From: Candidatus Marinacidobacterales bacterium
GTDB lineage: Bacteria > Acidobacteriota > Vicinamibacteria > Marinacidobacterales > SMYC01
Reading direction: 5' to 3'
DNA: 64,000 nucleotides
Assembly (NCBI GenBank): GCA_965224085.1
Contig: CBDCYI010000005.1
Span: 1,984,001-2,048,000 of the forward strand
Shown here: in pieces, positions 31,263 to 51,815 of the stretch
Position numbering within the stretch: the stretch's first letter is position 1
How the letters are laid out: each line of letters starts with the position of its first letter
The notes under the pieces: model-generated
The model's input: only the letters and a program-made list of their open reading frames with translations
Told to the model about the DNA's origin: nothing
Databases searched by the model: none
Translations under genes and position numbers: made by a program

Positions 31263-31365
31263 CTTGGACTCCTTTACCTTTGCGGCTCATTGCGCGCTCA
31301 TGCCATGCGTGGTGTTGTCGGTCCCACCCCCAACCAGTCCGGCGCGTTCGTTCGGGACGGTAGCA

Positions 31366-32133: not shown

Positions 32134-32164
32134 TTCGTGCCTCAGTGCGCGCTCACTCCTCGTT

Positions 32165-32337
32165 CCCGCCTTCGCCAAGGCTTCGGCGGGTCCGCCCGAA
32201 GTTCTCGAGCCATTGGCGTACAACGAAGGCGGACGCGCGCTTGGCGCTCCCGTCCTCGGCCCATTCGGGCCGGTCTCGCGGCAGACGCGTTGGTGGCTGC
32301 TCGGCACGGCGGCCTGCGTTTTTTAGCACCCTGCTAT
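32165..32337. repeat. REP/MITE-like extragenic palindromic element
   Basis: CCCGCCTTCGCCAAGGCTTCGGCGGG hairpin; CCGCCTTCG...CGAAGGCGG long-range pair; IS-end-like TTTTTAGCACCCTGCTA. Confidence 0.5.
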
Positions 32338-33722: not shown

Positions 33723-33976
33723 GATGCAGCACGAATCGAGAAGAGCGTTTGTCCGACGAGAACCGTCTCTCCGTTGACGCCCAGGATCTCGACCACTTCG
33801 CCGGCCACCGGGGCCTTGATCTTGGAATAGAGCTTCATCGACTCGAGCAGGGCCAACGTGTGACCCTCGTCGACCTGAGAGCCGACCTGGACGAACGGCT
33901 CTGCCTCCGGGTCAGTGCTTCGGTAGAAGACTCCCGATAGTCTCGCCTTGATCTCAACAAGGCCGGTTTCGGACAA
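33719..33976 (-). CDS. Biotin carboxyl carrier protein
   Basis: GVFYR...PFV.VG, ESMK biotinylation motif. Confidence 0.88.
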   Translation of the reverse strand: MSETGLVEIKARLSGVFYRSTDPEAEPFVQVGSQVDEGHTLALLESMKLYSKIKAPVAGEVVEILGVNGETVLVGQTLFSIRAAS

Positions 33977-34005
33977 CTTCTGCTTCCATCGCGATATTCA
34001 ACTGA

Positions 34006-34128
34006 ACAGTAACGATCTCGAAGGGCTGTGTCAATCTCAAGTGCTTCCAAAATGAGGACTAACGAGCCTTCTCGTTTTGACTCACGCGTCAAAAATCCGT
34101 TGACTTTCCGGTGGGAGCCGTCTACCAT
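34006..34128. promoter_or_regulatory. Divergent sigma70 promoters flanking a perfect palindrome
   Basis: Minus TTGACA(34034-34029)-17-TACTGT; plus TTGACT(34100-34105)-17-TACCAT; TTTTGAC-N6-GTCAAAA at 34075-34094. Confidence 0.65.
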
Positions 34129-34187
34129 CCTCCTCCAGCGGACCCTCCTTGTCTGTCCGCCGATTGTCCTCCCCAGCCAGGAGGGCA

Positions 34188-35939
34188 GTGGCTCGCGAGC
34201 GCGAGGTGGCCCATTTGTCGAGTTTCCCAAGCGCGGGTTTCACGGTGGCGGTGGCGCTTCTCGCGCCGTCGCCGGCCGGCGCGACTGAGCACCCGGCCGC
34301 GCTTCTGGCCATCGTCGAAGAGTTGCGAGCGCTCCGCGTGCCGGACGAGATCGACGGCGTCCCCGACTACTCGGCCGCGGCGGTGGATCGCCAGAAGCGC
34401 GCTTTGAGAACGCTCGCTCAGCGATTCGACCGACTCGCCCCGGAGGGCTGGACACGGCACGACCGGGTGGACTATCTGCTCCTGCGCTCCGAGCTGGACC
34501 GTCTGGAGTACGTGCTCTACGTGGAGCGTCCGACGTCGCGGAACCCGAATTTCTACCTGTCATCGATCTCTTCGGCGGGAATGCTGAGCGGCGCCGCGCT
34601 GAGCCGGCTCGGACGGCTGGTCAGTCAGCCCCCGCCGTTCGATCCTGGAAGAACCGAGCGCATCCTCGAGCAGATGCGTTCGGTGCCGCCCCTGCTCACC
34701 GCCGCTCGGGCGAACCTCACCGAGGCCGACGCCCCGCGGGCCGAGTGGGCGCTCGAAACGCTGAAAGGCACCCTCGCAGGTAGCCGGCGGTTCGCCCAAG
34801 CCCTCGCACCGCATGTTCCGAAAGAGCTAAGAGGGGAGATCTCTGTCGCGGCCGAGCGCATGGGTGAAGCGTTCGACGGGTACGAGAGGTGGCTTCGCGA
34901 CAACCTGGACCAAATGGGAGAGCCGCGGCCGGCGGGCCGGAAACTCTATGACTGGATCCTGCGAAACGTTTGGCTTCTTCCCTACGACGCGGAGGACATC
35001 CTCCGGATGGGCGAGCAGGAGCTAGCGAGGCTCCAGGCGTTTACCGCGTTCGAAGAGAAGCGCAACGAGGGGCAGCCGAAGCTCGTCGCGGCAGTGACAA
35101 CCCGCGAGTACGCGACCAGAACGGAGCAAGAGGCAAGGCGCATCCGGGCGTTTCTGAAGGAAAAGGACGCCATCACGATTCCGTCACTGGTAGGTCCCTA
35201 CCGTCGTACCGTCATGCCGGACTACCTCCAAGCCTTTGCGCTGTGGAACGCCCTCAGTGGCTATCGCACCGGCGACGGCGGTGCCGTCAAGTATGCCGTG
35301 CCCGAAACGCACCCTTTCCAGAGCACCTACTGGGAAGCGATCATGCGCACCGACCCCGCCACGAACATCTTCCACGACGGCATTCCGGGTCATCACTTTC
35401 AAGGCCTGCTGGCGGCGGAGAATCCGTGTCCGGTGCGTCGCGGGCACAACGAGCGCTTCAAGAGCGAAGGGTGGGCCACCTACTGGGAAGAGGCCGCGGT
35501 GCAGCTCGGCTACTACGACGACCGGCCCAGGAGTCGCGAGCTGATCTACAGCTATCTCCGCCTGCGTGCGTTGCGCGTCATCGTGGACGTGAAGATGGCG
35601 CTGGGGGAGATGACGAAGGAGGAGGCGGTGGCGACGTTGATGTCGACGCCGATGGATCGGCGCATCGCGCGGGAGGAAGTCGACGATTTCTTCGCCGCCC
35701 CGACTGGCGGCATCGTCTACCTGATCGGCAAGCTTCAGATCGAATCCCTGCTTTCTAAACGCCGGCGACAGCTCGGCGACGACTTCCGTCTGCGCACGCT
35801 CCACGATGAGCTCATGACCGCCGGCTGGGTGCCTCTCGCGCTGACGGAATGGGAGATGACGGGAGAGTCGCGCGCGGTCCAGATCCTGTTCGAAGACCGT
35901 CGACCGCTACCGCGTTCGCAAAGTGGAGAGGGCTTCTGA
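34188..35939 (+). CDS. DUF885 family protein (exported); start uncertain
   Basis: HDGIPGHHFQ, EGWATYWE, LRALRVIVD, YLIGKLQI, HDELM. Confidence 0.85.
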   Translation: MAREREVAHLSSFPSAGFTVAVALLAPSPAGATEHPAALLAIVEELRALRVPDEIDGVPDYSAAAVDRQKRALRTLAQRFDRLAPEGWTRHDRVDYLLLRSELDRLEYVLYVERPTSRNPNFYLSSISSAGMLSGAALSRLGRLVSQPPPFDPGRTERILEQMRSVPPLLTAARANLTEADAPRAEWALETLKGTLAGSRRFAQALAPHVPKELRGEISVAAERMGEAFDGYERWLRDNLDQMGEPRPAGRKLYDWILRNVWLLPYDAEDILRMGEQELARLQAFTAFEEKRNEGQPKLVAAVTTREYATRTEQEARRIRAFLKEKDAITIPSLVGPYRRTVMPDYLQAFALWNALSGYRTGDGGAVKYAVPETHPFQSTYWEAIMRTDPATNIFHDGIPGHHFQGLLAAENPCPVRRGHNERFKSEGWATYWEEAAVQLGYYDDRPRSRELIYSYLRLRALRVIVDVKMALGEMTKEEAVATLMSTPMDRRIAREEVDDFFAAPTGGIVYLIGKLQIESLLSKRRRQLGDDFRLRTLHDELMTAGWVPLALTEWEMTGESRAVQILFEDRRPLPRSQSGEGF

Positions 35940-35953
35940 TCGAAGGAGGATAG

Positions 35954-37717
35954 ATGATGAGGAACCTGAGATCGTTCGCAAGCCTAGGCATGCTCGTGCT
36001 CCCTGCAGTGTGGCTGGCAATGACGGAGGCGCGCGCCCAGGAGAGCCAACCGGTCCGCCACGCATCCCCGGAGCTCATCCAGCTCGCCGAAGAGTTTCGC
36101 GCCTTCCGCAGCCCGTTGTTTCGGCCGCGAACCTGGACTCCTACCCATCGGGTGGCTGGCGTGCCGGACTACGCGACGGTGGTGCGAGAGCAGCGAGAAG
36201 GACTGACGCGATTTCAAGAGCGACTGCGGGCCCTCGACCACCGCAGCTGGCCGGTGCACGACCGCGTCGACTACCTGGTGCTTCGCTCGGAGATGGACGA
36301 CGTTTTCTTCGAGCAGCACGTGCTGCGCGAGGTCGAGACCAATCCCAGCTACTACGTCGAGCAGGCCATCAACGGGGTCGCGCGGGAGATGGGTGACGTC
36401 GTTGCTTACAGTACGCAGAAGGCGGAAGCGATCATCGCCGCCTTCGAGCGGACCGGTCCCATCCTCGAGCAGACCGCCGGCAATATCGTGCTGGCCGAAA
36501 CCGCACCCGCGTTCGGCCGGATGGGCATGCGTCACGTGAAGAACATTCGAGCGCAATATGCCGCGGGCGTTCAACTTCTCGAGCCCCACTTCCCCGCGGG
36601 GCGTCGCGCGAGGCTGAGCTCGGCGGCCGAGCAAGCCGCGATCGAGCTCGAGAAGTACGGCACGTGGATCGAAGCGAACCTTCCGCAGATGAAAGGCCAG
36701 GCGCACGTCGGCCGGAAGAACATGGAGTGGTACTTCGAGCGGGTGAACTTCTCGCCCTGGAACGTCGAGGAGCTCCTGTTTCTCGGTGAGATGGAAAAGA
36801 ACCGCTTCCTCATGTCCATCGAGGTCGAAGAGACCGTAAACCAGGGGCTCAAAGAGCTCACGATGCCGACCACCGACGAGATGATCGAGTGGTTCCGGCT
36901 CACGTATCTGCAGACGAAGTACTGGCTGAAGGACACGGATCTCATCAGCTTCCATCCCTACATCGGGGAGTCGTACCTTCAAGCAGGAGCCTGGCAGGAG
37001 CCTTTCGGCCGCCTCGGCAACCGACCGGGGCTCATCGGTTTTCCCACCGAGCCGAAGCCGGAGCCCACCAAGCGGCTGTTCGTGGTCCCTGAAGGCCACT
37101 GGTTCACCGAAACGTACTGGGAGCGCACGATGCGGCTCGATCCGATCACCGACTACCAGCACTCCGACTGGCCGGGTCACTACTTCGAGGCCGCAGTGAC
37201 CAAGCGAAACCCTTGTCCCGTTCGGGCCGTTCACAAGGACACCGGCTTCTCGCAGGGCTGGGCGCACTACTGGGAGGAGCTGTTCCTGGACATGGGCTAT
37301 CCCTACTTGCGGGGACCGCGGACGCGTGAGCTCACGTACAACTTCCTGTTGTTGCGGGCGGTGCGGATCCCGCTCGACATCTATTTGTCCACCGGCGAGC
37401 ACTCGGTGGACGAGGCGGTTCAGTATCAGGTCGACCGCGTTCCCACGATGGAAGAGCACATCTCCCGGGCGGAGGTGGATATGTACGTGCGCTGGCCCTA
37501 TCAGGCTACGAGCTACATCGTGGGGAAGAAACAGATCGAGCAGATGCTTGCGGAGACGATCGTGAAGGGAGACTACAGCGTGAACTGGCGTGAGTTCCAC
37601 GATGCCATGCTCCAGTACGGACAGATCCCGCTGGCTCTGGTCCGATGGGAGCTGACAGGGAACTCCGATCAGGTCGAGGAGTTCTGGAAGGATCCGGATC
37701 GGCCGTCCACCGAATAG
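35954..37717 (+). CDS. DUF885 family protein (signal peptide)
   Basis: ARA-Q signal; HSDWPGHY, QGWAHYWE, PYQATSYIVGK, EFHDAML. Confidence 0.85.
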   Translation: MMRNLRSFASLGMLVLPAVWLAMTEARAQESQPVRHASPELIQLAEEFRAFRSPLFRPRTWTPTHRVAGVPDYATVVREQREGLTRFQERLRALDHRSWPVHDRVDYLVLRSEMDDVFFEQHVLREVETNPSYYVEQAINGVAREMGDVVAYSTQKAEAIIAAFERTGPILEQTAGNIVLAETAPAFGRMGMRHVKNIRAQYAAGVQLLEPHFPAGRRARLSSAAEQAAIELEKYGTWIEANLPQMKGQAHVGRKNMEWYFERVNFSPWNVEELLFLGEMEKNRFLMSIEVEETVNQGLKELTMPTTDEMIEWFRLTYLQTKYWLKDTDLISFHPYIGESYLQAGAWQEPFGRLGNRPGLIGFPTEPKPEPTKRLFVVPEGHWFTETYWERTMRLDPITDYQHSDWPGHYFEAAVTKRNPCPVRAVHKDTGFSQGWAHYWEELFLDMGYPYLRGPRTRELTYNFLLLRAVRIPLDIYLSTGEHSVDEAVQYQVDRVPTMEEHISRAEVDMYVRWPYQATSYIVGKKQIEQMLAETIVKGDYSVNWREFHDAMLQYGQIPLALVRWELTGNSDQVEEFWKDPDRPSTE

Positions 37718-37750
37718 TGGACGTCACCAGAAGAGAGAGCCGAGAGGCAA

Positions 37751-39091
37751 GTGACAAATAACAACGAAGCGTCAAGCAACGTCCGATGGCGCATCATCGC
37801 CCTTCTGGTGGGCTTCAGCCTGGTGAGCTACATCCTCCGGATGAATATCTCCATCGCCGCCCAGTTCATGATGCCGGAGCTCGACATCACCCAGATACAG
37901 ATGGGGCAGATCTTCAGCGCGTTTCTGCTCGGCTACGCGCTGTTTCAGATCCCGCTCGGTGTCCTCGGAGACCGTCTGGGCTCCGGAATGCTGGTGACTC
38001 TCGGCGTCGTGTGGGCGGTGCTGACGGTGATCTCGGGGCTCCTGCCCGGCGTTGTCTTCGGGACCGGGACGGCCGCTTTCGTTCTGCTCGTTGTCGTGCG
38101 ATTCGTGCTGGGTGTCACCATCGCTGGCGTCTACCCCATCTCGGCGCTCACCGTGGCGAAGTGGCAGCCCGTGACGCAAAGGGCTTTTTCGTACTCGTTC
38201 ATCGTGGCCGGGGTCTTCATTGGCTCGGCGGTCACGCCGCCGATCGTGGCCTGGCTCATGGTGACGCTCGGCTGGAGAGAATCTTTCTATCTCGTGTCCG
38301 TTTTCGGCGTTGCAGCCGCTCTCACCTGGAAGTTCTACGGTGCCAACCATCCACGGGAGCATCCGGACGTCAGCCCCGGCGAGCTCGCGCTCATCACCGA
38401 GGGGCGGGAGCCCGCGGTGGGACCTCCTCCCGTGGGAGCGGTGTGGTGGACACTTCGCAACCCCTCGGTTCTCTTCCTGAGCGCCAGCTATTTCCTCGCC
38501 GGCTACGTGCTCTACACCTTCATTTTCTGGTTCTTCACGTATCTGGTGGAAGAGCGCCAGTTCACCCTCCTCGAGGGCGGCGTCTACGCGAGCTTGCCGT
38601 TCATCGCGGCGGGCATTCTGTCACCCGTTGGTGGTGCCATCTGCGACTGGTCGACGATGCGCTTCGGTCAGCGGTGGGGCCGACGACTCACCGCCTTCGC
38701 AGGACCGATTCTGGCCGGCGCACTGCTTTTCTGGGGAGCGCGAACCGAGAACGTGATTCTGGCCATCTGCGCGCTGGCGCTGAGCTTCGGTTTTCAAGAG
38801 TTCGCCGAAGCGGCCTATTGGTCGACCACCATGGATATCAGCGGCCGGATGACCGGCGCCGCGACGGGAATCCTGAACACGGCCAACAATCTCGGGGGCG
38901 TGGTCTCCACGGCGTTGATGCCGGTTCTGGTCCAGAAATGGGGGTGGGTTCCGGCCCTGGACAGTTGCAGCCTGCTGGCTGTTGTCTCGGCGGTGCTCTG
39001 GCTCGGCGTCCGTCCGGATCAGCCGATCGAAGTGCGGCAAGCGAACAGCGCGCAGGAGGTCGATGCCAGCTCGGCGGCTTCGCTTCCTTGA
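37751..39091 (+). CDS. MFS transporter (ACS/galactonate-like)
   Basis: R.NISIA, YALFQIP.G.LGDR, LGWR..F, G.LNT..NLGG; about 12 TMs. Confidence 0.92.
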   Translation: MTNNNEASSNVRWRIIALLVGFSLVSYILRMNISIAAQFMMPELDITQIQMGQIFSAFLLGYALFQIPLGVLGDRLGSGMLVTLGVVWAVLTVISGLLPGVVFGTGTAAFVLLVVVRFVLGVTIAGVYPISALTVAKWQPVTQRAFSYSFIVAGVFIGSAVTPPIVAWLMVTLGWRESFYLVSVFGVAAALTWKFYGANHPREHPDVSPGELALITEGREPAVGPPPVGAVWWTLRNPSVLFLSASYFLAGYVLYTFIFWFFTYLVEERQFTLLEGGVYASLPFIAAGILSPVGGAICDWSTMRFGQRWGRRLTAFAGPILAGALLFWGARTENVILAICALALSFGFQEFAEAAYWSTTMDISGRMTGAATGILNTANNLGGVVSTALMPVLVQKWGWVPALDSCSLLAVVSAVLWLGVRPDQPIEVRQANSAQEVDASSAASLP

Positions 39092-39108
39092 GCCGGACGG
39101 AAACCACT

Positions 39109-39612
39109 ATGGAAAAAGAATACTTCGAAGACTACACGGTGGGCGAGACGTTCGTCAGCCCGGCCCGCACGGTGACCGAATCGGACACCAACGCTTTCGC
39201 GATGCTGACCGGAGACTGGCATCCTTTGCACACCGACGTGACCTACGCGGAGAGCTCGGTGTTCGGCGAGCGCATCGCGCACGGGATGCTCACGTTGATC
39301 CTCGGCTCCACACTGGTCCTACGCCTCGGACCCCACGTTTACCTGCCGAAGAGCTTCATCGCTTTTTATGGCATCGACCGGGTGCGTTTCACGGCCCCGG
39401 TAAAGATCGGGGACACCATCCACGCCGTGAACCGCGTCAAAGATCTCGCTCCCAAGGACGAGGAGCGAGGAATCCTCCACTACGACGGCACGGTCCAGAA
39501 CCAGCGCGATGAAACGGTTCTCGTCTGGGAGGTCCGCATGCTGGTGGGCTGTCGCCCCGGGCAAACCGGGAGGGAGGAACAGGCCGCTGTCGAAGTGGAT
39601 TCTCGTTCGTGA
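39109..39612 (+). CDS. MaoC-family dehydratase
   Basis: YFED..VG, FAMLTGDWHPLH.D, RIAHGML, RFTAPV.IGDT. Confidence 0.9.
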   Translation: MEKEYFEDYTVGETFVSPARTVTESDTNAFAMLTGDWHPLHTDVTYAESSVFGERIAHGMLTLILGSTLVLRLGPHVYLPKSFIAFYGIDRVRFTAPVKIGDTIHAVNRVKDLAPKDEERGILHYDGTVQNQRDETVLVWEVRMLVGCRPGQTGREEQAAVEVDSRS

Positions 39613-39625
39613 GGAGGGAATTTTT

Positions 39626-41248
39626 ATGAAGAAGAAGAAACTGTGTCTTGCTGTCGCCACCGTTGTTCTCCTGGCTTCCGTCGCTTGTGGTCTGAGCAGC
39701 GGTGCCGGTGACTACCAGGCCCTCGTCGATCTCAACGACGAGTTTCTCGAGTTCCGCCGGCCGGCGATGACCAACGGCCTGCCAGACTACCGCAACGAAA
39801 CGATCGAGAGCCAGCGCGCGGGCCTGGAAAGCTTCGCCCAGCGGCTCCAGGCCATCGATCCGACGTCGTGGCCGGTGTCTCAGCAGGTGGACTACCTGCT
39901 CGTGCGGGCGCAGATCAATCGACTCGATTTCGATCATCGAGCGCGACGACGCTGGTCTCGTGATCCGGGCCTGTACGTCGACACCGTGCAGCGGCTGGCG
40001 TTCCATGAGTTTCCGCTCGAAGGGGAAAAGCTCGCCGAGCTGGAGACGCAGCTGGGCGGCGTTCCCGCTTTCCTGGCGCAGGCCGAAGACAACCTCACCG
40101 ACGGTGCGGGTGAGCTGACGATGCTCGCCCTCCGCAATCTCGTGACGGCCGACGGTGTGGGGCATGGCCATCCTTATCGGGAAGTGCCTCCCGCCGGCAC
40201 CATCGCCTGGTACGAGGATCTGGGTGAACAGCTCGAAAAGCACCACTCGGAGCTCGCCCCGAAAGCGAAAGAGGCGAAGGCGGCAGTCGAAGGATTCCAC
40301 CACTGGCTCAAAGCGAATCAAGGCCGGATGACCGCGCCTTCCGGAGTCGGCCGGGAGAACTACGACTGGTACCTTAAGTACGTAGCCATGATGCCCTTCA
40401 CGTGGGACGACGTGAACCGAATGGGCGATCGCGAGCTCCATCGGTCCTGGACCTTCCTGGAACTCGAAAGAAACAAGAACCGGAATCTGCCTCCGCTCGA
40501 GCCGGCGAAGAGTGCCGAGGACTACGCCCAGCGTATTCGCGAAGCGGATGAGCATATTCGGAAGTTCATCGTGGACATGGGCATCATCACCATCCCCGAC
40601 TACGTTGGCGACTTCGGCAGCAACGTTCCCTGGATCGTGCGCGAGGGCGGCAAGCGCAACTTCTGGGAGGAGGTCCAGTACCGCGATCCGCGGCCGGATC
40701 ACGTTCACGCCGTCATTCCAGGACATCGTTTCGACGGGCTGGTGAGAAGCCACGACGACCGGCCCGTTCGGGGTACGTACCGGGACAGAGGTCGTTCCGA
40801 GGGCTGGGGGTTTTATCTCGAGGAGATGATGCTGCAGGCGGGGCTTCTGGACGAGCGACCACGCACCCGGGAGCTCTATTACATCTTCCAGATTGCGCGT
40901 GCGGTTCGAAACCGCGCGGAAGCCCTGATGCATACCAACGACTTCACCGTCCAGGAAGCGGTGGACTACATGGTGGACAACACGCCCTTCATGGACGAAG
41001 ACGTGGCCCGGGTGGACGCCGAGATCTATCTGAAGACGCCGGGCTCGGGGATCGCCTATCAGATGGGGAAGCTTCAGATCGACGAGCTCATGATGGATCG
41101 CGCGCTTCAGCTGGGTGACAAGTTCAACTTGAAGGAGTTCCACGATGCGTTCATGGCGGCGGGAACGATCCCGATCTCGCTCATCCGTTGGGAAATGACC
41201 GGTTACGACGACGAGGTCAAGGACTTGTTCGAGAAGCCCGAAACATGA
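39626..41248 (+). CDS. DUF885 family protein (probable lipoprotein)
   Basis: SVAC lipobox-like; HAVIPGHR, EGWGFYLE, F.LKEFHD. Confidence 0.85.
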   Translation: MKKKKLCLAVATVVLLASVACGLSSGAGDYQALVDLNDEFLEFRRPAMTNGLPDYRNETIESQRAGLESFAQRLQAIDPTSWPVSQQVDYLLVRAQINRLDFDHRARRRWSRDPGLYVDTVQRLAFHEFPLEGEKLAELETQLGGVPAFLAQAEDNLTDGAGELTMLALRNLVTADGVGHGHPYREVPPAGTIAWYEDLGEQLEKHHSELAPKAKEAKAAVEGFHHWLKANQGRMTAPSGVGRENYDWYLKYVAMMPFTWDDVNRMGDRELHRSWTFLELERNKNRNLPPLEPAKSAEDYAQRIREADEHIRKFIVDMGIITIPDYVGDFGSNVPWIVREGGKRNFWEEVQYRDPRPDHVHAVIPGHRFDGLVRSHDDRPVRGTYRDRGRSEGWGFYLEEMMLQAGLLDERPRTRELYYIFQIARAVRNRAEALMHTNDFTVQEAVDYMVDNTPFMDEDVARVDAEIYLKTPGSGIAYQMGKLQIDELMMDRALQLGDKFNLKEFHDAFMAAGTIPISLIRWEMTGYDDEVKDLFEKPET

Positions 41249-41262
41249 GGCAGGAGGTCAAG

Positions 41263-42963: not shown

Positions 42964-43046
42964 GCAGGCGGCTCCTGAGAATGCATCGGCAGAGGCTGCC
43001 GAAGAGGAGGACGGGAGCAGCGAACGAGGAGTGAGCGACCATTGAT

Positions 43047-43116
43047 GAAAGGCCGAAAGGCCGAAAAGCCGACGACACACCGAGCGCCGAGCGAGGAGCG
43101 AGGCGCCAGGCGCGCG
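43047..43116 (+). repeat. Short imperfect tandem repeats (8-mer GAAAGGCC x3; 7-mer GAGCGAG-like x5)
   Basis: Directly visible in the intergenic spacer. Confidence 0.5.
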
Positions 43117-43159
43117 AACGAGCAGTGAGCGCACAATGATACAAAAAAGGAGGAACGTA

Positions 43160-44881
43160 ATGAGAAGATCTAAATGGACCCAAGTCCTGGCAGTGGTGGG
43201 CGTCATCGCCTTTGCCTCCGCCGGGATAGCACAGGACGTACCGACCGACCCCGCCGATCCCCGGCTCAACCAGGGACCGAAACCGGAGGCGATCGGGGAG
43301 AAGGTCATGGTGGCCACCCAGCTGCCGCAGGTCAGCAATGTGGCGATCCAGGTGATGAAGGATGGAGGCAATGCGGTAGATGCCATGGTGGCGGCCGTCT
43401 TCATGCAGCACGTGAACGATTTTCACCAGGTCTCTCACTTCGGCTCGATGTCGGTCATCGGTTATGACGCCGCGACCGACAAGTACTGGGCGCTGAACGC
43501 GGTCTCCGAGCGCCCGCCGGCCGATCGCCACGAGCACGGGGACCCCGAGAAGGTCGCCATCGGTGGCGTCGTGCGCGGTCTCGAAGCGATCGCCGAACGC
43601 TACGGAAGCGGCACCATGGAGTGGTCGAGCTACCTTCAGCCGGCCATCACCTCGGCGGAGGAAGGCGTTGTCGTGACCTCCTTCATGTACGGCATCAACT
43701 ACGGGCTCATGGAGCGAGGTGAGCTCGTCAAGAACCCGGAGGCGCGCCAGGCCTACATGGCGAACGGTCATCTCGTTCCGGTCGGAGAGCGCTGGAAGCG
43801 CCCGAAGTTCGCCGAGACGCTTCGCAAGGTCGCCTCCGAAGGGGCCGACTACCTCTACACCGGAGCCTGGGCCAAGAAGTTCGTCGAGGCCGCCAACAAG
43901 AAAGACTATGCGGTCAGCATGCAGGACCTGGCGGAGTACGAGCCGAAGTGGGACGAGCCGACACGATTCACTTATCGGGGCCTCGAGTTCTACGGCTCCC
44001 CACCGCCGGACACCGGTGGCCTGATCGTCGGAAGCAACCTCAACATTCTGGAGAACTTCGATCTGAAGAGCATGGGCCACTACAGTGAGTCGCCCGAGGC
44101 CCTCGAGATCATGATCCGCGCCTTCGGCCGGGTCAACGACGAGACCCGTTGGGTCATCAAGGATCCGCTCAATTTCCGCATCCCCTCGGAGCTCTGGCTC
44201 TCCAAAGAGTACGGAAAGATGGGAGCCAAGTTCGTGGAGAACACGATGCTGCTTCCCAAAGTGGACCTCGCTCCCGCCACCGAGACCACCGCCGCATTGG
44301 TACAGCCGGCGACGCCGCTGTTTCCCGCCGGCGCCGACGGTGCGGACAGCGCCGATCTGGGAAGCAACCACAACGTCATCGTGGACTCGCAAGGGAACTG
44401 GGTGTCGATGCTCCACACCGGACACGGTGGTGCCCCGGGCATCTTCATCGATGGGGTGAGGGCGACGGGAAGTGGCGCCCGCGCCTACACCGCGGGTCCC
44501 GGCCGTCGACTGGTCCTGCCGATCACCGGGATCATCGTCGCCAAGGACGGAAAGCCGTGGCTGGCGATGGGTACCCCCGGCTCGCCTCCGCAGCCGGTGA
44601 CCGAGGTTCTGGTGAACATCATCGACTACGGCATGCATCCGAAAGATGCCGCAGACGCGCCGCGCTTCTGGGCCTTCCGAAACGACGAACGTGGGGTTCG
44701 CATCGAGTCCCGCATCTCCGACAGCGTGCGGAAGGGCATGAAGAGGAGGGGGATCAAGGTGACCGATCTCGGTGATTACAACTGGCACACCGGCTCCATG
44801 CAGATCATCTGGATGGGTGAGGACGGGAAGCTTCACGGAGCCACCGATCCCCGACGACTCGGAACGGTCATAGGTTACTGA
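43160..44881 (+). CDS. Gamma-glutamyltransferase-like Ntn hydrolase (exported)
   Basis: AGGAGG RBS, signal peptide, GGNAVDA, SNHNVIVDSQGN, TDPRR. Confidence 0.85.
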   Translation: MRRSKWTQVLAVVGVIAFASAGIAQDVPTDPADPRLNQGPKPEAIGEKVMVATQLPQVSNVAIQVMKDGGNAVDAMVAAVFMQHVNDFHQVSHFGSMSVIGYDAATDKYWALNAVSERPPADRHEHGDPEKVAIGGVVRGLEAIAERYGSGTMEWSSYLQPAITSAEEGVVVTSFMYGINYGLMERGELVKNPEARQAYMANGHLVPVGERWKRPKFAETLRKVASEGADYLYTGAWAKKFVEAANKKDYAVSMQDLAEYEPKWDEPTRFTYRGLEFYGSPPPDTGGLIVGSNLNILENFDLKSMGHYSESPEALEIMIRAFGRVNDETRWVIKDPLNFRIPSELWLSKEYGKMGAKFVENTMLLPKVDLAPATETTAALVQPATPLFPAGADGADSADLGSNHNVIVDSQGNWVSMLHTGHGGAPGIFIDGVRATGSGARAYTAGPGRRLVLPITGIIVAKDGKPWLAMGTPGSPPQPVTEVLVNIIDYGMHPKDAADAPRFWAFRNDERGVRIESRISDSVRKGMKRRGIKVTDLGDYNWHTGSMQIIWMGEDGKLHGATDPRRLGTVIGY

Positions 44882-44940
44882 CACTACATTGGATGGCGGG
44901 GTCTCTGACTCGAGGGGCCCCGCCTCGAAAAGGAGGGGGC

Positions 44941-46662
44941 ATGCACTGCGCAAAAGCCATGCGGATGATACTGGTTGGTCTGCTCACCTGGCTCTCTGTG
45001 TCGACCGCCTGGAGCCAACCGACCCTGCCCGACGATGCACGGGACGCCATCTACAACCAGGGCCCGAAGCAGGAAGCGGTCGGCGACAAGGTGATGGTGT
45101 CGACGCAGCTTCCCATCGTGACCGAGACCGCCCTTCAGGTTCTTCGCGACGGGGGTAATGCGATCGATGCCTTCGTCACCGCCGTCTTTCTTCAAAACGT
45201 CGTCGACTATCACCAGGTGAGTCTCTTCGGTGCCATGGGCGGGCTCTATTACGAGGCGGCCACCGGGAAGTACCACGTCTTCGAGTCCTACTCGGAGAGA
45301 CCGCTCGCGGGTCGCTGTGGCGAAGGCGATCCTTCCAAGGTGGCCATCGGCGGCAAAGTGGCGGGCCTGAACGCTCTCGCCGAACGATTCGGCACCCGCA
45401 AGTGGGCGGAGTATCTCGATCCGGCCATCGCCGCGGCGGAAGAAGGTGTTCTAGTCACCTCCTTCATGTACGGCAGCAACTACAACAACTGGGAAACGGG
45501 CGACCTCATCCAGCAGAACGAGGAGGCCAGAGATTTCTACATGCCGGAGGGTCATCTCGTTCCGGTGGGCCACCGCTGGAAGATGCCGAAAGTGGCGGAG
45601 ACGTTGCGCCATATCGCCTCGGAGGGGGCCGACTATCTCTACACCGGCGCCTGGGGGAAGAAGTTCGTCGAGAAGTCACGCGAGAAAGGTTATTGCGTGA
45701 GCCTCGAAGACATGGCGGACTTCCAGGTGCGCTGGTCCGATCCCGTCCGCTCCACGTACCGCGGCTACGAGATCGTGAGCGAGTCGCCACCGAAAAAGGG
45801 TGGCGTTCAGATCGCCTACAACCTCAACATTCTCGAGAACTTCGATCTGAAGAGCCTCGGTCACTACGCGACGTCGGCGGAAAGCCTCGAGATCCTGACG
45901 AGGGCGCTCGGCAGGGTGGAGAACGATATGCGGTACGGGATCGCCGATCCGAAGGCGTTTCAGATCCCAACCGAGGTGTGGCTGTCGAAAGACTACGCCC
46001 GGTTCGGCGCCGATTTCGTACGGCAGACGATGGTCGTTCCCAACGTGGATTTGACGCCGGCCAAAGCAACGGCAGCGCTCCATCGTCTGGCCCCGACACG
46101 GATCGCGCGGTCCGCCGACGCGCCGCCGCTGGTCGACGAGAGCAATCACAACGTCATCGTCGATGCCGAAGGGAACTGGATCACGTCGCTTCACACCGGA
46201 CATGGCGGCGCGCCGGGGATCTTCATCGACGGCTTGCGGGCGACCGGGAGCGGTTTTCCCGGCCAGACGGTGGGCCCAGGCCGGCGGGTGAGCCCCAACA
46301 GCACCGGTACGATCGTGGCCAAGGACGGAAAGCCGTGGCTCGCTCTCGGCTCGCCGGGCGTACCGCCCCAGCCGGTGACCCAGATACTGGTGAACATCAT
46401 CGACTTCGGCATGGATCCCGGCGACGCCGCGGACGCACCGCGCTTTTTCGCCTTCCGTACCAACGAGCGGGTTCTGGCCATCGAGTCCCGCATCTCCGAC
46501 GACGTGCGAAAGGGTCTGAAGGCCCGCGGCATCAAGATCGAAGACCTTGGTCCGTACAACTGGCACACCGGCTCCATGCAAATCGTCTGGAGGGATCCGG
46601 AGACGGGAAAGCTTCACGGCGTGAGCGATCCCCGCCGACTCGGCCGCGCCGCCGGCTTCTGA
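44941..46662 (+). CDS. Gamma-glutamyltransferase-like Ntn hydrolase (exported)
   Basis: AAGGAGG RBS, signal peptide, GGNAIDA, SNHNVIVDAEGN, SDPRR. Confidence 0.85.
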   Translation: MHCAKAMRMILVGLLTWLSVSTAWSQPTLPDDARDAIYNQGPKQEAVGDKVMVSTQLPIVTETALQVLRDGGNAIDAFVTAVFLQNVVDYHQVSLFGAMGGLYYEAATGKYHVFESYSERPLAGRCGEGDPSKVAIGGKVAGLNALAERFGTRKWAEYLDPAIAAAEEGVLVTSFMYGSNYNNWETGDLIQQNEEARDFYMPEGHLVPVGHRWKMPKVAETLRHIASEGADYLYTGAWGKKFVEKSREKGYCVSLEDMADFQVRWSDPVRSTYRGYEIVSESPPKKGGVQIAYNLNILENFDLKSLGHYATSAESLEILTRALGRVENDMRYGIADPKAFQIPTEVWLSKDYARFGADFVRQTMVVPNVDLTPAKATAALHRLAPTRIARSADAPPLVDESNHNVIVDAEGNWITSLHTGHGGAPGIFIDGLRATGSGFPGQTVGPGRRVSPNSTGTIVAKDGKPWLALGSPGVPPQPVTQILVNIIDFGMDPGDAADAPRFFAFRTNERVLAIESRISDDVRKGLKARGIKIEDLGPYNWHTGSMQIVWRDPETGKLHGVSDPRRLGRAAGF

Positions 46663-46668
46663 AGTACC

Positions 46669-46694
46669 GAGGGGGAGCCGAGGGGCTCCCCCTC
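46669..46694 (+). terminator. GC-rich hairpin (terminator or mRNA stabiliser)
   Basis: GAGGGGGAGCC-gagg-GGCTCCCCCTC directly after stop; weak U-tract. Confidence 0.5.
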
Positions 46695-46718
46695 AGACTT
46701 CATGCAATGGTGGACGTG

Positions 46719-48332
46719 ATGAAAAGAAGCACTCTCGCCGCAATTCTTGGTTCCGTTGTACTGGCTCCTGCACCGGCCTATTCGCAAGGCGCCCACGCGG
46801 ACGTCGTTCGCTTGTACGATGAGCTCCAGGAGCTCCGAGAGCCAGAGTTCGTCGACGGTGTGCCGGATCTTTCATCGGAAGCGATAGAGAAGCAGAAGCG
46901 CGGCCTGGAAGCACTCCGTCGCGAGCTGAACATGATCGAGCCGAGAGCCTGGCCCGTTCCGCAACAGGTGGACTACCTGCTGGTGCGCGCGAAGATGGAC
47001 GAACTCGACTTTCATCATCGCGTCATAAAGCCGTGGGCGCGCGACCCGGGCTTCTATCTCGACTCGATAGCACAGATACCTTTTGCCGAGGTCCCGCTCG
47101 ACTCCGGGGAAGCCTCCGAGCTCGAACGTCGACTGCGGTCGGTGCCCGCCGTCCTGGAGCAGGCGAAGTCGTACTTGACGGAAGGCGCCCGCGATCTTTT
47201 GGTGGTCGCCCTCAGAAACCTGAAAGAGTCACGCCGCGTCGGCGGGGGACAGCCGATGCGGAACGAGCCACCCCCGGGTGTGGTTGGCTGGTACCAGGAC
47301 CTCGTCGAGCGCCTTGCCGACCAACATTCCGACCTGGTGCCGGTGGCGAAGGAAGCTCTCGCTGCCGTCGAGGGCTACCGGGACTGGCTCGAGGAGAACC
47401 GGGAGCAGATGACCGCTCCAGGTGGCATCGGACTCGACGACTACGACTGGTTCTTGAAGCACGCCCGCCTGATGCCCTTTACCGCCGGCGACGTGCGGGC
47501 CTTGGGAGAGCGGGAGGAGCAGCGCGGGTGGGCTTTTCTGAAGATCGAGCAGAACCAGAATCGAGACCTTCCCGAGCTCGAGCTGGCGAAAACAAGAGAA
47601 GAGTACATTGGACGCGTGCGGGAGGCGGACGTGCACATCCGGGCGTTCATCCGCACCGAGGGCATCTTGACGATCCCCGATTTCATCGGAGAGCTTGACC
47701 GGCACGTCCCGTGGGTGGAGCGTCCGACCGACTATCTTCGCTTCTGGGAGCAGCTCCAGTATCGCGATCCCCGTACCGACCACGTGCACGCCACGATCCC
47801 CGGCCACCAGTTCGACGGACGGATCCAGGCCCGGGACGAGCGGCCCATCCGGGCTGGGTACCGGGACGGCGCCCGCGGCGAAGGCTGGGGTTTCTATCTG
47901 GAAGAGATGATGCTTCAGGCCGGTCTTCTCGACGAGCGGCCCCGAGCTCGCGAGCTCTACTACATCGCCCAGCTCGGCCGGGCGGTCCGCATCGCCTCGG
48001 AGCTCATGATGCACGGCCGGGAGGGGTCGATCGAAGAGGCGGTCCGCTACATGCTCGAGCACACGCCCTGGATGGACGAGCACGTCGCCTGGTTCGACTG
48101 CGAGGTGTACCTGCGGCGGCCGACCTATGGCATTGGCTACACGATCGGAGCCGTCCAGATTCAGCAGCTCTTGTCCGACCGGGCCCGTCAGCTCGGGGAG
48201 GCCTTCGACCTTCGCGAGTTCCACGACGCGATTCTGGGCGCGGGGCGGATTCCCATCTCGATGACCCGATGGGAGATGACCGGCCTGGGCGATGAAGGGA
48301 GCAGGTTTTTTGACGACTCAGGCGGGCAGTAG
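46719..48332 (+). CDS. DUF885 family protein (signal peptide), paralog of 39626-41248
   Basis: HATIPGHQ, EGWGFYLEEMMLQAGLLDERPR shared with 39626-41248, FDLREFHD. Confidence 0.85.
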   Translation: MKRSTLAAILGSVVLAPAPAYSQGAHADVVRLYDELQELREPEFVDGVPDLSSEAIEKQKRGLEALRRELNMIEPRAWPVPQQVDYLLVRAKMDELDFHHRVIKPWARDPGFYLDSIAQIPFAEVPLDSGEASELERRLRSVPAVLEQAKSYLTEGARDLLVVALRNLKESRRVGGGQPMRNEPPPGVVGWYQDLVERLADQHSDLVPVAKEALAAVEGYRDWLEENREQMTAPGGIGLDDYDWFLKHARLMPFTAGDVRALGEREEQRGWAFLKIEQNQNRDLPELELAKTREEYIGRVREADVHIRAFIRTEGILTIPDFIGELDRHVPWVERPTDYLRFWEQLQYRDPRTDHVHATIPGHQFDGRIQARDERPIRAGYRDGARGEGWGFYLEEMMLQAGLLDERPRARELYYIAQLGRAVRIASELMMHGREGSIEEAVRYMLEHTPWMDEHVAWFDCEVYLRRPTYGIGYTIGAVQIQQLLSDRARQLGEAFDLREFHDAILGAGRIPISMTRWEMTGLGDEGSRFFDDSGGQ

Positions 48333-48590
48333 AGAGCTTCGGATAGGGGAAGTTCAATTTTCCGAACGGAACGATCCAGCTGCCCGGATTGCCGTTCCGC
48401 GAAAATATATTCCAGCTAAACCACACAACACGAAGGGATTACGGGCTTGACGCGGCGCGTCACGGTCCAGGGCAATTTAAACTCTTGGGTCAAGAAAACC
48501 AAAATCTTGAATCTCCCTCGATCCAGAGACGGACCATACATCTAACATCAATGTTCTGAATGAGTTGTGAGCATTCACTGGAGGATCAAG

Positions 48591-48606
48591 TGGTATGTAT
48601 ATTGCA
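48591..48606 (+). promoter_or_regulatory. sigma54 (-24/-12) promoter
   Basis: TGGTATGTATATTGCA with canonical GG-N10-GC spacing in an AT-rich 400 bp spacer. Confidence 0.65.
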
Positions 48607-48739
48607 TCCGTACCAAATGAGAGTTGTTCATTCGTGCCTTTGTTTTACTCGCCAGTGAACCGGGGATCGCTTCCTCGGTTTTGTCTATTTCTCGCCGGAC
48701 GCTGATCGAGTGGGCTCGGCGGCAAGGAGGATCCAAGCT

Positions 48740-51613
48740 ATGTCCTTAAATTCGTTGCTCCATCGACCTTCATGGCGTTTGACGCTGACGGCGGTGCTCG
48801 TTGTGGTGCTGGCCTCGGGGCTCGCCTTCGCCCAGGATCGGACGGGCGACATCTACGGCAAAGTCACCGACGACCAGGGACTCGGAATCCCTGGGGCGAC
48901 GGTCACCGTCACCAGCCCGGCGCACATCAAGACCGAGATAATCGTCACCGGCAACGAGGGAAACTACCGGGCCGTCCGCCTGAGCCCGGGCTCCTACACG
49001 GTGAAAGTAGAGCTTTCCGGTTTCCGGACGGTGACGAACCAAGAAGTGGTGCTGCTGGCGGGTCAGTCGATCGCGGTAAACGCGACGCTCTCACCCGCCG
49101 CGGTAGAGGAGACGATCACCGTCACCGGCGAGTCGCCCTTGGTGGACGTCAAGAACGTCCAGGTGATGCGGACGCTGGAAACGGAGCTTCTCGACAACAT
49201 CCCGAACGGTCGCAAGTACGCGGACCTTCTCACCACGGTGGCCGGGGTGCTCGACGCCGAGTACGGCTTCACGCCCGCCCAGACGGTGCACGGGAGCTCG
49301 CCCCGGGACAACCTGTACAACATCGACGGGGCGGCCTTGAACGACACCACGGTGGGTTATATCGCCACCGAGATCCCGATCGATATGATCGAAGAAGTCC
49401 AGATCACCACCAGCGGTATCTCGGCGGAGCACGGTCTGTCCACCGGGGGTGTGTTCAACTTCGTCACCAAATCGGGCGGTAACGACTTCAGCGGCACCGC
49501 CAACTTCTTTTACGAGGGCGAGGGCCTGACCGCGGACAACCTGACCCCCGAGCTTGCGGAGCAGATCCCCCAGGGAAGCGTCATCGAAAAGAACCAGGAG
49601 ATCGGCGGCACCGTCGGTGGTCCGATCAAGCGCGATAGTGTCTGGTTCTTTTTCAATTTGCGCCGGACCGAAGTGGATGTCGCAGAGCCTTTCCTTCCGC
49701 CGGGCTCGCCCCGTGCCACGAATCAGACCCACAGCTTCACCAAGGCGACCTGGCAGGCGCATGCGAACACCCGGATCGAAGGCTCCTTGACCACGCGGGA
49801 TCAGGACCAGAATCCCGGCAACGTCCGAAGCTTCTCGAACGCCGACGCCCCCGAGACCTGGGAGATCCTCAAACGCTCCCAGCGCATCGTTCACGTGGCC
49901 GCAACGCACGTCTTCTCGCAGAACACGCTCATGGACGCGCGATTCAACCGGGTGTTCAAGAACTTCGACCGGGAGTATCCCAACAATCCCGATCTCGTTG
50001 TGGGGTACAGAGACATCGGCACCAACAAGCAGTTCGGTGGTCAGTTCGACCGCAGAGGACTCCGAAGAACCTTGGCCCGCGACATCGGGCAGTTCCACGT
50101 CTCGCTCTCGAACTACAAGGAGAACTGGGGAGGCTCGCACGAGTTCAAGGGCGGTTTCTACGCGGAGCGCTCACCGTTCGATAACGAGAACTTCTGGCCG
50201 AACGGTGAGGACATCGAGCAGCGCCTGCGCTTCGGCGAGGCCCACCGCGTGCGCTTGTGCGTGTGTCCGCAGGACGGCGTCAAGTCGAGCATCGACCGCT
50301 ATGCCGCCTACTTCCAGGATCAGTGGACGATCACCGATCGGGTGACACTGAACGCCGGCATCCGCTGGGAGGGCACCGAGGGATGGATTCCGGAGCAGAG
50401 CGCCGGCGGCGGCCGATTCTTCGCCTTGGAGACCCAGGAAGAGCTACGGGACCAGATCAACTTGAGCACCTTCGCTCCGCGGCTGGGCGTCGCCATTGCG
50501 CTCGACGAGGCAGGGCGGAGTACGCTGAAGGCCAGCTACGGTCGTTACTACGCCATGCTCCTGAATCAGACGGCGCTCAGGCTCGTCCAGGTGGGAGGCT
50601 TCGAGGAATACCGGTGGAACGACCTCAACGGCGATCTCGTCTTCCAGGAAGGTGAGGCGGGAGCCCTGACCCGCGGGCGCAGCGCCGGTTTGCGCGAGTC
50701 CGATCCCGACTTGAAGCAGCAGTATGTCGACAACTTCAACATCACCTTCGAGCAGCAGTTCGGCCGCGACTTCGTTTTCTCCGTGGCCGGGATCATCAAG
50801 CGGGAGAACGACATCATCGAGACCGCTGACATCGGCCGGCCCTTCTCCGCCTACAACGAGGTCACCGTGACGAACCCCGTCGACGGACAGCCCATCAACA
50901 TCTTCGTTCTCGATCCTTCCTTTCTGGGCTCCCCCACGGTTACCTTCATCACCAACCCCAAAGATCCGACACCGCTGTTCCGGGACTTCGACGCTCTCGA
51001 GCTCGTGTTCCAGAAGCGCTTCCGCGAGGGCTGGCAGATGCTCGCCTCCTACACCTGGAGCAGCTCCTACGGCAACATTGGCAACAGCTACGGCTCGAGC
51101 TCCGGTGGCCGGTCCGTCTACGACAACCCCAACACCACCCTCATCAACATCGAGGGTCCTCTCGATATGGACGTGCCCCACGCCTTCAAGCTCCAAGGCA
51201 CCTATGTGTTCCCGCACGACGTCTGGGTCAGCGCTTACTATCAGGGCCTTTCCGGCTTCCCCCTCAAGCTCCCCCAGGATTTCCCCAGCGACCCGGCACT
51301 CGGGGCCCGCACGGTTCGCTTCTTCCGTGAGGATGTACCGGAAATGGTGGTCGAGAGCTTCATCGACATCGCCGGCACGCAGAGGGGCTCCGAGCGACAT
51401 GACTTCAAGCATCTCGTGAACTTGCGGGCGGAAAAGAAATTCAACCTGGGAGGCGGCGCGCGCATCGGCATCATCGCCGATGTGTTCAACCTGTTCAACA
51501 GCAGCCGGGTGACCACGGTTCAGTCGTTGCGCGTCGACCTGCCACAGTTCCACGTTCCGGCGCGGATCGAGTTCGCCCGCCGGCTTCGAATCGGTCTCCG
51601 CTTCGAGTTCTAA
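48740..51613 (+). CDS. TonB-dependent receptor (Oar-like, carboxypeptidase-regulatory-like N-domain)
   Basis: AAGGAGG RBS, signal peptide, G.VTD..G..IPGATV, ETITVTGESPLVD, TKSGGN.F.G, QDQWT, C-terminal F. Confidence 0.92.
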   Translation: MSLNSLLHRPSWRLTLTAVLVVVLASGLAFAQDRTGDIYGKVTDDQGLGIPGATVTVTSPAHIKTEIIVTGNEGNYRAVRLSPGSYTVKVELSGFRTVTNQEVVLLAGQSIAVNATLSPAAVEETITVTGESPLVDVKNVQVMRTLETELLDNIPNGRKYADLLTTVAGVLDAEYGFTPAQTVHGSSPRDNLYNIDGAALNDTTVGYIATEIPIDMIEEVQITTSGISAEHGLSTGGVFNFVTKSGGNDFSGTANFFYEGEGLTADNLTPELAEQIPQGSVIEKNQEIGGTVGGPIKRDSVWFFFNLRRTEVDVAEPFLPPGSPRATNQTHSFTKATWQAHANTRIEGSLTTRDQDQNPGNVRSFSNADAPETWEILKRSQRIVHVAATHVFSQNTLMDARFNRVFKNFDREYPNNPDLVVGYRDIGTNKQFGGQFDRRGLRRTLARDIGQFHVSLSNYKENWGGSHEFKGGFYAERSPFDNENFWPNGEDIEQRLRFGEAHRVRLCVCPQDGVKSSIDRYAAYFQDQWTITDRVTLNAGIRWEGTEGWIPEQSAGGGRFFALETQEELRDQINLSTFAPRLGVAIALDEAGRSTLKASYGRYYAMLLNQTALRLVQVGGFEEYRWNDLNGDLVFQEGEAGALTRGRSAGLRESDPDLKQQYVDNFNITFEQQFGRDFVFSVAGIIKRENDIIETADIGRPFSAYNEVTVTNPVDGQPINIFVLDPSFLGSPTVTFITNPKDPTPLFRDFDALELVFQKRFREGWQMLASYTWSSSYGNIGNSYGSSSGGRSVYDNPNTTLINIEGPLDMDVPHAFKLQGTYVFPHDVWVSAYYQGLSGFPLKLPQDFPSDPALGARTVRFFREDVPEMVVESFIDIAGTQRGSERHDFKHLVNLRAEKKFNLGGGARIGIIADVFNLFNSSRVTTVQSLRVDLPQFHVPARIEFARRLRIGLRFEF

Positions 51614-51649
51614 GCGGGTACGGAAAAGGGAGTTCAACAAAGACCGGAT

Positions 51650-51670
51650 GGGGCGGCTTCGAGCCGCCCC
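51650..51670 (+). terminator. Hairpin between convergent genes
   Basis: GGGGCGGC-ttcga-GCCGCCCC. Confidence 0.55.
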
Positions 51671-51689
51671 GTTCGTCTCGCTTGAGGCG

Positions 51690-51815
51690 TTACGGTTTCA
51701 GCACCTGAAGGTACAGGCGCAGGAAGTTGAGGCCGAGGATTTTTTCGATGTCGGCGGACGAATGTCCCCGACGCTCGAGGCCCTGGCCGATGAAGTTCCT
51801 CGCGCTCCTTCTGGG
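51690..51815 (-). pseudogene. Membrane dipeptidase (M19) C-terminal remnant abutting IS1634
   Basis: Manual translation IGQGLERRGHSSADIEKILGLNFLRLYLQVLKP*. Confidence 0.7.

Follow-up and report, generated by a model that had tools for sequence, protein, structure and literature searches.

Bacterial gamma-glutamyltransferases (GGTs; MEROPS T03, PF01019), such as those of Escherichia coli (2e0w, 2dbu) and Bacillus licheniformis (4y23), are exported enzymes, and the solved GGTs use threonine as nucleophile; the same fold is found in the cephalosporin acylase 2nlz. Three DUF885 proteins have been solved, from Shewanella (3u24), Colwellia (3o0y) and Arthrobacter (3iuk), two of them deposited as lipoproteins and none with a described function. 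Pfam puts this family in the Peptidase_MA clan, according to the available part of PMC12572635. Among receptor-led systems, RagAB of Porphyromonas gingivalis and the SusC/SusD loci place a receptor with an N-terminal carboxypeptidase-regulatory-like domain beside exported hydrolases, and RagAB takes up oligopeptides, as stated in the available parts of 10.1101/755678 and PMC11817032. Here we describe a cluster of ten genes from Candidatus Marinacidobacterales bacterium in which relatives of these proteins stand side by side. The cluster occupies positions 34188-51613 of the window, that is, of the whole stretch of 64,000 nucleotides that was analysed (G000:C5:1984001-2048000), and all gene coordinates given below are window positions.

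We hold with moderate confidence that this cluster is a modular, lineage-specific, receptor-led locus through which peptide or amide substrates are imported and hydrolysed. Its GGT-family proteins, which carry serine instead of threonine (Ser-GGTs), would act as N-terminal-nucleophile (Ntn) amidohydrolases that are not gamma-glutamyl enzymes, and its DUF885 proteins, which lack the glutamate of the family motif, would be binders or atypical hydrolases. The Ser-GGT subfamily is the most novel part of the locus. Start codons were picked from upstream GGAGG-like sites and domains were assigned with Pfam, which agrees with a preliminary description in finding four DUF885 (PF05960), three G_glu_transpept (PF01019), one MFS_1, one MaoC_dehydratas and one TonB-dependent receptor gene, all on the forward strand:

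34188-35939, forward (+): D1, DUF885 protein (PF05960, 204.9 bits)
35954-37717, forward (+): D2, DUF885 protein (PF05960, 120.5 bits) with a signal-peptide-like N-terminus
37751-39091, forward (+): MFS permease (Pfam MFS_1, 180.4 bits)
39109-39612, forward (+): MaoC hot-dog protein (PF01575, 86.2 bits against a 27-bit cutoff)
39626-41248, forward (+): D3, DUF885 protein (Pfam PF05960), conserved partner of the GGT triplet
41263-42963, forward (+): G1, GGT family (PF01019), Ser391 codon at 42433-42435
43160-44881, forward (+): G2, GGT family (PF01019), Ser402 codon at 44363-44365
44941-46662, forward (+): G3, GGT family (PF01019), Ser401 codon at 46141-46143
46719-48332, forward (+): D4, DUF885 protein (Pfam PF05960)
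48740-51613, forward (+): TonB-dependent receptor (Pfam CarboxypepD_reg, Plug and OMP_b-brl_4)

G1-G3 match PF01019 over their full length, each as two stretches, at 241.7-249.1 bits (cutoff 27), and their predicted cleavage site lies at the same position as in bacterial GGTs. The serine of their S-N-H-N motif falls where the precursor 4y23 of B. licheniformis has its mutated nucleophile. All three score below the TIGR00066 equivalog cutoff of 357.85 bits (G1 210.3, G2 216.8, G3 232.8 bits) and reach 149-174 bits on PRK09615, against a cutoff of 990. The best solved match is E. coli GGT (profile E 1.9e-62), with 2nlz in third place (E 4.6e-50). Serine at this position is widespread among their relatives: SNHNVIVD is read in 7/7 aligned paralogues of the same genome, and among the 120 best database homologues of G3, 98 carry S-x-H-x and 18 more S-N or S-C followed by A, Q or H. 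Hence about 116 of these 120 have serine at the nucleophile, the remaining 4 being unmatched or partial. Homologues of G3 fall into 254 clusters at E<=1e-60, and Ser-GGTs comprise at least 254 clusters; the ESM Atlas matches to G3 are clusters named GGT only.

The available part of PMC8062742 names Arg114, Asn411, Gln430, Asp433 and Ser462-Ser463 (within PLSSMXP) as the residues with which E. coli GGT holds the gamma-glutamyl group. As read from printed alignments, the position of Arg114 is Ser or Gly in Ser-GGTs and that of Asn411 is an invariant His. The Ser462-Ser463 pair aligns to a loop that varies among the paralogues G1, G2 and G3, while the stretch of Gln430 and Asp433 is shortened, the alignment there being uncertain. 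Ser-GGTs do keep the Thr409 equivalent, the first oxyanion Gly and the C-terminal DPR motif. G1-G3 therefore resemble bacterial GGTs in these retained elements, but differ from them in the serine nucleophile, in the missing gamma-glutamyl-holding residues and in forming three diverged tandem copies. Because the residues that hold the free gamma-glutamyl group are lost, G1-G3 are, judged by their sequences, probably not glutathione or gamma-glutamyl enzymes. As both the nucleophile and the substrate-holding residues differ, the GGT name transferred to Ser-GGTs is very likely wrong.

A tree built with MAFFT and FastTree, whose groupings were read from topology alone, places G1, G2 and G3 each with its own positional orthologues, and each line has its own loop signature. 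The clade of G3 orthologues is sister to two copies of the same genome that are linked to M16 genes. The separate orthologue clades and line-specific loop signatures indicate that the triplication is old and maintained, and the conserved, line-specific active-site loops point to three different specificities. Further away, the distant GGT relatives L062, L063 and L066 (in G077, G043 and G071) share 36-40% identity; L062 and L066 read G-S-C-E-L in the nucleophile region, and L063 is a close sister of L062 in the tree. L064 and L065 read T-N-H, so that relatives at 36-42% identity carry either Thr (T-N-H) or Ser (S-C-E). The switch between Ser and Thr may have occurred more than once.

D1-D4 score 120-205 bits on PF05960 (cutoff 32.4 bits). 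D1 shares 28-33% identity with D2, D3 and D4, and D4 shares 53% with D3. All three solved DUF885 structures carry H-E-x-x-P-G-H; D1-D4 resemble these proteins by sequence, but none of the four has that glutamate. D1 reads H-D-G-I-P-G-H (35373-35393), with Asp in place of Glu, and D2 reads H-S-D-W-P-G-H (37160-37180), followed downstream by SQGW instead of EGW. D3 has H-A-V-I-P-G-H (40706-40726) and D4 H-A-T-I-P-G-H (47787-47807). The His residues of the motif and EGW..Y.E are kept in D1, D3 and D4. These variants recur in homologues: HA..PGH and EGW are present in 120/120 of the best homologues of D3 (down to 50% identity), HAVIPGH in all 13 positional D3 orthologues (74-80% identity), and HD in D1 homologues of L078, L079 and L093 (55-58% identity). 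Invariant positions of the D3 subfamily are H361, A362, P365, G366, H367, D370, E392 and E399-E400. With the Glu-less and the serine motifs fixed across large subfamilies, both appear to be conserved working variants and not products of decay.

To compare folds, an AlphaFold2 model of D3 (pLDDT 92.6, pTM 0.89) was used. Its nearest DUF885 structures are 3u24, 3o0y and 3iuk (TM 0.65-0.72), whose two-lobed fold it shares, and Foldseek finds a weak likeness (E 0.008-0.05, probability ~0.9-0.99, TM 0.25-0.38) to two-lobed oligopeptidases and carboxypeptidases of short peptides, namely ACE/ACE2 (M2), Pz-peptidase A, oligoendopeptidase F, thimet oligopeptidase/neurolysin (M3) and M32 enzymes. These zinc peptidases carry HEXXH, whereas H-x-x-x-P-G-H of D3 spreads over helix, loop and helix and lacks the catalytic Glu: in the model, His361-Ala362 close one helix, Pro365-Gly366 form the loop and His367 opens the next helix. 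Asp370, one turn past His367, is invariant in the subfamily and a candidate substitute base.

Searches of the open-access main text of PMC and bioRxiv found no paper on a Ser-type GGT subfamily or a DUF885/GGT pairing, and none on a serine nucleophile in GGT or on Acidobacteria with TonB and GGT. This agrees with the earlier statement that no described DUF885/GGT partnership was known. DUF885 itself is mentioned in open-access text, the term appearing in no title or abstract among the matches listed.

A scan with Ser-GGT patterns, taking one genome per species, returned 28 loci in related acidobacterial genome bins. The receptor, D3, G1, G2 and G3 are present in 13 of them (L009-L018, L020, L025 and L027) at 74-86% identity; L027 is cut by a contig end, and L019 and L021 include too little upstream sequence for a judgement. 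The 13 core loci come from separate species-level bins, and gene order and tight spacing are kept while the flanks differ. A receptor homologue (58-60% identity) precedes D3 in these relatives. In 11 of the 13, a gap of 1.6 kb follows the receptor, which in L010 is filled by a TPR protein (TPR families only), recalling the receptor plus TPR lid of RagAB. By tblastn, the 13 core loci show no D1, D2, MFS or MaoC, and no D4 downstream of G3. An S9 prolyl oligopeptidase family gene replaces D3 upstream of G1 in L026 (4672-6348) and L029 (8080-9927), and the rest of the 28 loci hold single Ser-GGTs, several of them adjoining S9 genes.

Eight of the 31 genomes of the same order have a Ser-GGT, and five, across two families, have the D3-G1-G2-G3 block. 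G258, a genome of the same class, has three Ser-GGTs; their neighbours are S9, M24 or amidohydrolase genes, and DUF885 genes are absent within ~9 kb. Across a sample of the phylum, at least 8 of 401 genomes match at E<=1e-90, with three candidates scored per genome. Since only the four-gene core is common to related genomes, we regard the cluster as probably a lineage-specific locus for scavenging nutrients and not as a new general system.

Seen from the DUF885 side, the pairing is rare. A metagenome scan with a D3 profile kept 80 loci, 52 of them of at least 6 kb, and every D3- or D4-like match with a readable motif carries H-A. Among these 52 H-A DUF885 loci, MFS was found in two and MaoC in one. 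Only two genomes, G003 and G012, were found to carry all ten genes in this order, and their proteins share 92-99% identity with those encoded in the window. In G003 (L049/L050, G003:C1:8916001-8950000), MFS has an in-frame stop and D4 a frameshift near residue 428, the other eight genes being intact; in G012, MFS is intact.

Several metagenome loci resemble parts of the cluster. L071 (3234-11620) has a biotin carboxylase on the opposite strand, followed by MFS, receptor, MaoC and an H-A DUF885 at 53-62% identity, and also an S9 gene on the opposite strand; it may show what the left half of the cluster looked like in a simpler or ancestral form. L073 holds MFS, receptor, S9 and three H-A DUF885 genes. 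L078 runs from a 3-hydroxyacyl-CoA dehydrogenase through a receptor to an H-A DUF885, with an aminotransferase and an H-D DUF885 further along. Compared in this way, the window appears to combine two modules by fusion, MFS-MaoC-DUF885 and DUF885-GGT-triplet, with further DUF885 copies added.

Both families are expanded in this genome. The 19 DUF885 frames comprise eight with HE, six with a motif lacking Glu and five without the motif, and two of the six Glu-less frames sit outside the cluster. The altered motifs of both families noted in the preliminary description are real; their being altered coordinately is an interpretation. Of the 35 GGT-matching stretches, other GGT genes reach up to 583 bits on PF01019, and eight are Ser-GGT paralogues at 59-80% identity. 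Outside the cluster, three of these eight lie in receptor/Ser-GGT/M16/M16 modules at C5:693456-701604(-), C5:2063324-2071277(+) and C5:2071329-2079483(-), which are headed by paralogues of the receptor (47-49% identity). The remaining two are found after an S9 peptidase and before an S9 peptidase with a divergent receptor, respectively. A Glu-bearing DUF885 follows a receptor and precedes an M20 peptidase. Judged by gene content, the recurring theme is that receptors of this type are accompanied by exported peptidase-like proteins. Just beyond the window, at G000:C5:2051093-2079483 (L001, L002), receptor-M16-M16 is followed by receptor-SerGGT-M16-M16 on each strand; the receptor at 2063324-2065856 was matched in two pieces and may be frameshifted.

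Within the cluster, the intergenic gaps from D1 to G1 measure 13-33 nt, with MFS, MaoC and D3 packed at 13-17 nt. Wider gaps separate G1 from G2 (196 nt), G2 from G3 (59 nt), G3 from D4 (56 nt) and D4 from the receptor (407 nt). By eye, D2, D3, D4, G1, G2, G3 and the receptor have N-termini resembling signal peptides, and that of D3, MKKKKLCLAVATVVLLASVAC, has a lipoprotein-like look. All seven DUF885 and GGT proteins had been described as exported or lipid-anchored, which fits six of them and is less clear for D1.

MFS, MaoC and D4 are accessory genes of the cluster. By its matches, the MFS protein is an inner-membrane permease nearest to the anion:cation symporter (ACS; D-galactonate transporter) subfamily: its best NCBIfam match is TIGR00893 (D-galactonate transporter subfamily) at 186.2 bits against a cutoff of 395, so that the earlier label of an ACS-type MFS fits loosely. 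In L071 and L073, an MFS homologue (56-57% identity) lies beside H-A DUF885 genes and a receptor gene. The MaoC protein, which has no signal peptide and is therefore predicted to be cytoplasmic, appears (R)-specific enoyl-CoA hydratase-like. Its NCBIfam matches are to PaaZ C-terminal and RipB-like models, with all equivalog models below cutoff, and a homologue (62% identity) lies directly upstream of the H-A DUF885 in L071. The receptor probably has its own promoter; a promoter-like site lies at 48574-48603 in the gap after D4, at a level not above shuffled background, and a terminator-like hairpin lies at 51645-51675, 3' of the receptor. The cluster differs from RagAB and SusC/SusD in that no SusD or RagB family match was found in it and no TPR gene adjoins the receptor of the window; its host also belongs to another phylum.

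Promoter and terminator scans gave counts not above those of shuffled sequence, so that the limits of an operon rest on gene spacing only. An Rfam search at the gathering threshold for a riboswitch or leader RNA before the receptor gave only a distant ALIL pseudoknot (RF01497, 99 bits) at 1963-2079 (-), which points to a further insertion sequence.

Six RNA-library runs contain part of the stretch, and contigs from four runs (four studies) were mapped on the locus. Two runs cover 30/30 bins of 33900-51800, and single contigs bridge the D2-MFS, D3-G1, G1-G2 and G2-G3 junctions; such contigs are weak evidence and prove neither transcription nor a single transcript. Uncovered stretches in runs X19 and X20 were not counted as absence, and depth was not used for ranking genes. 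A contig of 6.6 kb joins 37821 to 39430, skipping MFS and most of MaoC. In two seawater runs, 44948 is joined to 48980; this join passes over G3, D4 and the start of the receptor, and would truncate the receptor. These joins may be strain variants or deletions, or else assembly artefacts or chimeras.

The flanks of the cluster were inspected as well. Upstream, 15590-33722 is rich in catabolic genes, with two PQQ dehydrogenases, a carboxyltransferase, AtuA, 2-oxoacid dehydrogenase E1/E2, luciferase-like oxidoreductases, an enoyl-CoA hydratase, a thiolase, an SDR and a biotin carboxylase. Downstream of the receptor lies an insertion sequence (IS) element at 51816-53753, with 16-nt inverted repeats at 51816-51831 and 53738-53753 and a DDE_Tnp_1 transposase gene at 51875-53704(-). 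It is missing at the same site in the close relative G003, where a sortilin-like gene directly follows the receptor. In the window, 53876-60095 (-) encodes a 1121-aa sortilin/BNR-repeat protein and two M24 peptidases. An M24 gene is also found downstream of the GGT triplet in relatives (75-79% identity), which makes this flank syntenic, and a class IV aminotransferase and M24 peptidases occur near the locus in relatives.

Gene content, motif changes, motif conservation and the neighbourhood pattern are direct observations; from them we infer export, self-processing, hydrolysis, the class of substrate and the direction in which material moves. An oligopeptide or another substrate with amide links would cross the outer membrane through the receptor and would then be processed by exported proteins, either in the periplasm or at the surface of the cell. 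There, G1-G3 would be self-processing Ntn amidohydrolases with Ser for Thr. Given the loss of the motif Glu, the DUF885 proteins would either bind the substrate and hand it over, or hydrolyse it with another residue as base. As optional additions, MFS and MaoC would take up an anionic product and process it in the cytoplasm. This is close to the import-and-hydrolysis locus, likened to a polysaccharide utilization locus (PUL), of the preliminary description, and it suits the context, with Ser-GGTs found repeatedly beside receptors and exported peptidases; a ten-gene conserved system was not borne out. The co-localisation whose absence would, by that description, refute it gives a split picture: it is present in the 13 of 28 loci and the five of 31 same-order genomes with D3-G1-G2-G3, and missing in G258, at the remaining five Ser-GGTs of this genome and in nearly all H-A DUF885 metagenome loci.

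Several points weigh against a receptor-led locus of this kind. A Ser-GGT was found in only one of the 52 H-A DUF885 metagenome loci (L067, 80% identity) and is absent from 51, which marks the pairing as lineage-specific. Using a receptor profile built from ten receptors, a same-strand receptor was found within 2.5 kb upstream of the H-A DUF885 in 6 of the 36 loci with at least 3.2 kb upstream, and two of these six, L078 and L079, look like duplicates. The receptor stands last in the cluster, after the 407-nt gap, and heads modules elsewhere. With 19 DUF885 frames and 35 GGT stretches in the genome, some of the adjacency could stem from duplication alone. Furthermore, Thr-to-Ser mutants of two GGTs process slowly and lose ~90% of activity, according to the available part of PMC8062742; a natural Ser enzyme may thus be slow or require other compensating changes. 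Lacking the motif Glu, the DUF885 proteins may not be enzymes at all. Finally, every functional step given above for both subfamilies is of the deduced kind.

One alternative takes the substrate to be an N-acylated or lipid-modified peptide. Ser-GGT acylases would free its acyl group, which would be taken up by MFS, activated with CoA and passed via MaoC to the acyl-CoA pathway, much as the preliminary description had suggested. We consider this unlikely. The tight packing of MFS, MaoC and D3 favours it, and L071 repeats the arrangement; however, L071 links MaoC with DUF885 and not with a GGT. Candidate acyl-CoA-pathway genes stand nearby in L078, whose 3-hydroxyacyl-CoA dehydrogenase adjoins the receptor before the H-A DUF885, and in the window, where biotin carboxylase, thiolase, enoyl-CoA hydratase and AtuA-type genes lie upstream. 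Serine is used by known Ntn acylases of acyl amides, penicillin acylase and PvdQ among them. On the other hand, MFS and MaoC were found in 0/13 core loci and seldom in the H-A DUF885 loci (2/52 and 1/52), MFS carries a stop in G003, the contig joining 37821 to 39430 skips both genes, and no acyl-CoA ligase was seen in the cluster. A precedent for an acyl-amide hydrolase is the Asp433 mutation D433N, which brings cephalosporin (glutaryl-amide) acylase activity into GGT, as reported in the available part of PMC8062742.

It is also conceivable, and in our view rather improbable, that there is no functional system here and that tandem duplication and shuffling of two expanded exported families, in a genome with many mobile elements and decaying genes, produced the arrangement. 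The 19 DUF885 frames and eight Ser-GGT paralogues, the IS element adjoining the receptor and the absence of the pairing at 51 of 52 H-A DUF885 loci are consistent with this, as is the confinement of the ten-gene order to genomes with nearly identical proteins, in one of which MFS and D4 are broken. Against it, D3-G1-G2-G3 has kept order and spacing in 13 species-level bins despite differing flanks, and each paralogue forms an orthologue line with its own loop signature. The altered motifs, too, are fixed across large subfamilies, so that the genes appear to work and to be under selection. That G1-G3 are true gamma-glutamyl enzymes, salvaging glutathione, gamma-glutamyl peptides, poly-gamma-glutamate or gamma-D-glutamyl peptidoglycan links, would accord with their full-length PF01019 match, E. 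coli GGT as best solved match, signal-like N-termini as in exported bacterial GGTs and the class IV aminotransferase and M24 peptidases near the locus in relatives, and an internal gamma-Glu link would presumably need no residues holding a free alpha-amino group, but we judge it highly doubtful in view of the Ser nucleophile, the scores below the TIGR00066 and PRK09615 cutoffs, the equivalents of Arg114, Asn411, Asp433 and Ser462-463 not being kept and the far higher scores of other GGT genes in the genome.

Little is known of how the uncultured marine and sponge-associated Acidobacteriota contribute to the turnover of dissolved organic nitrogen. The cluster flags two large uncharacterised subfamilies that databases name merely 'gamma-glutamyltransferase' or 'DUF885', and in practical terms it offers a better annotation and a delimited set of proteins. 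The strict retention of Thr in other GGTs is a question on which a naturally occurring Ser nucleophile in this fold would bear. We also offer, as a quite improbable extension, that Ser-GGTs form a novel class of exported Ntn amidases or peptidases that have given up gamma-glutamyl substrates, that in this lineage they work as a set of three specificities, and that a Glu-less DUF885 protein captures the imported substrate and hands it over to them. If true, enzymes and binders from two families would be partners in degrading unusual marine organic matter held together by amide links, examples being acylated peptides, gamma-linked peptides and peptides that contain D-amino acids.

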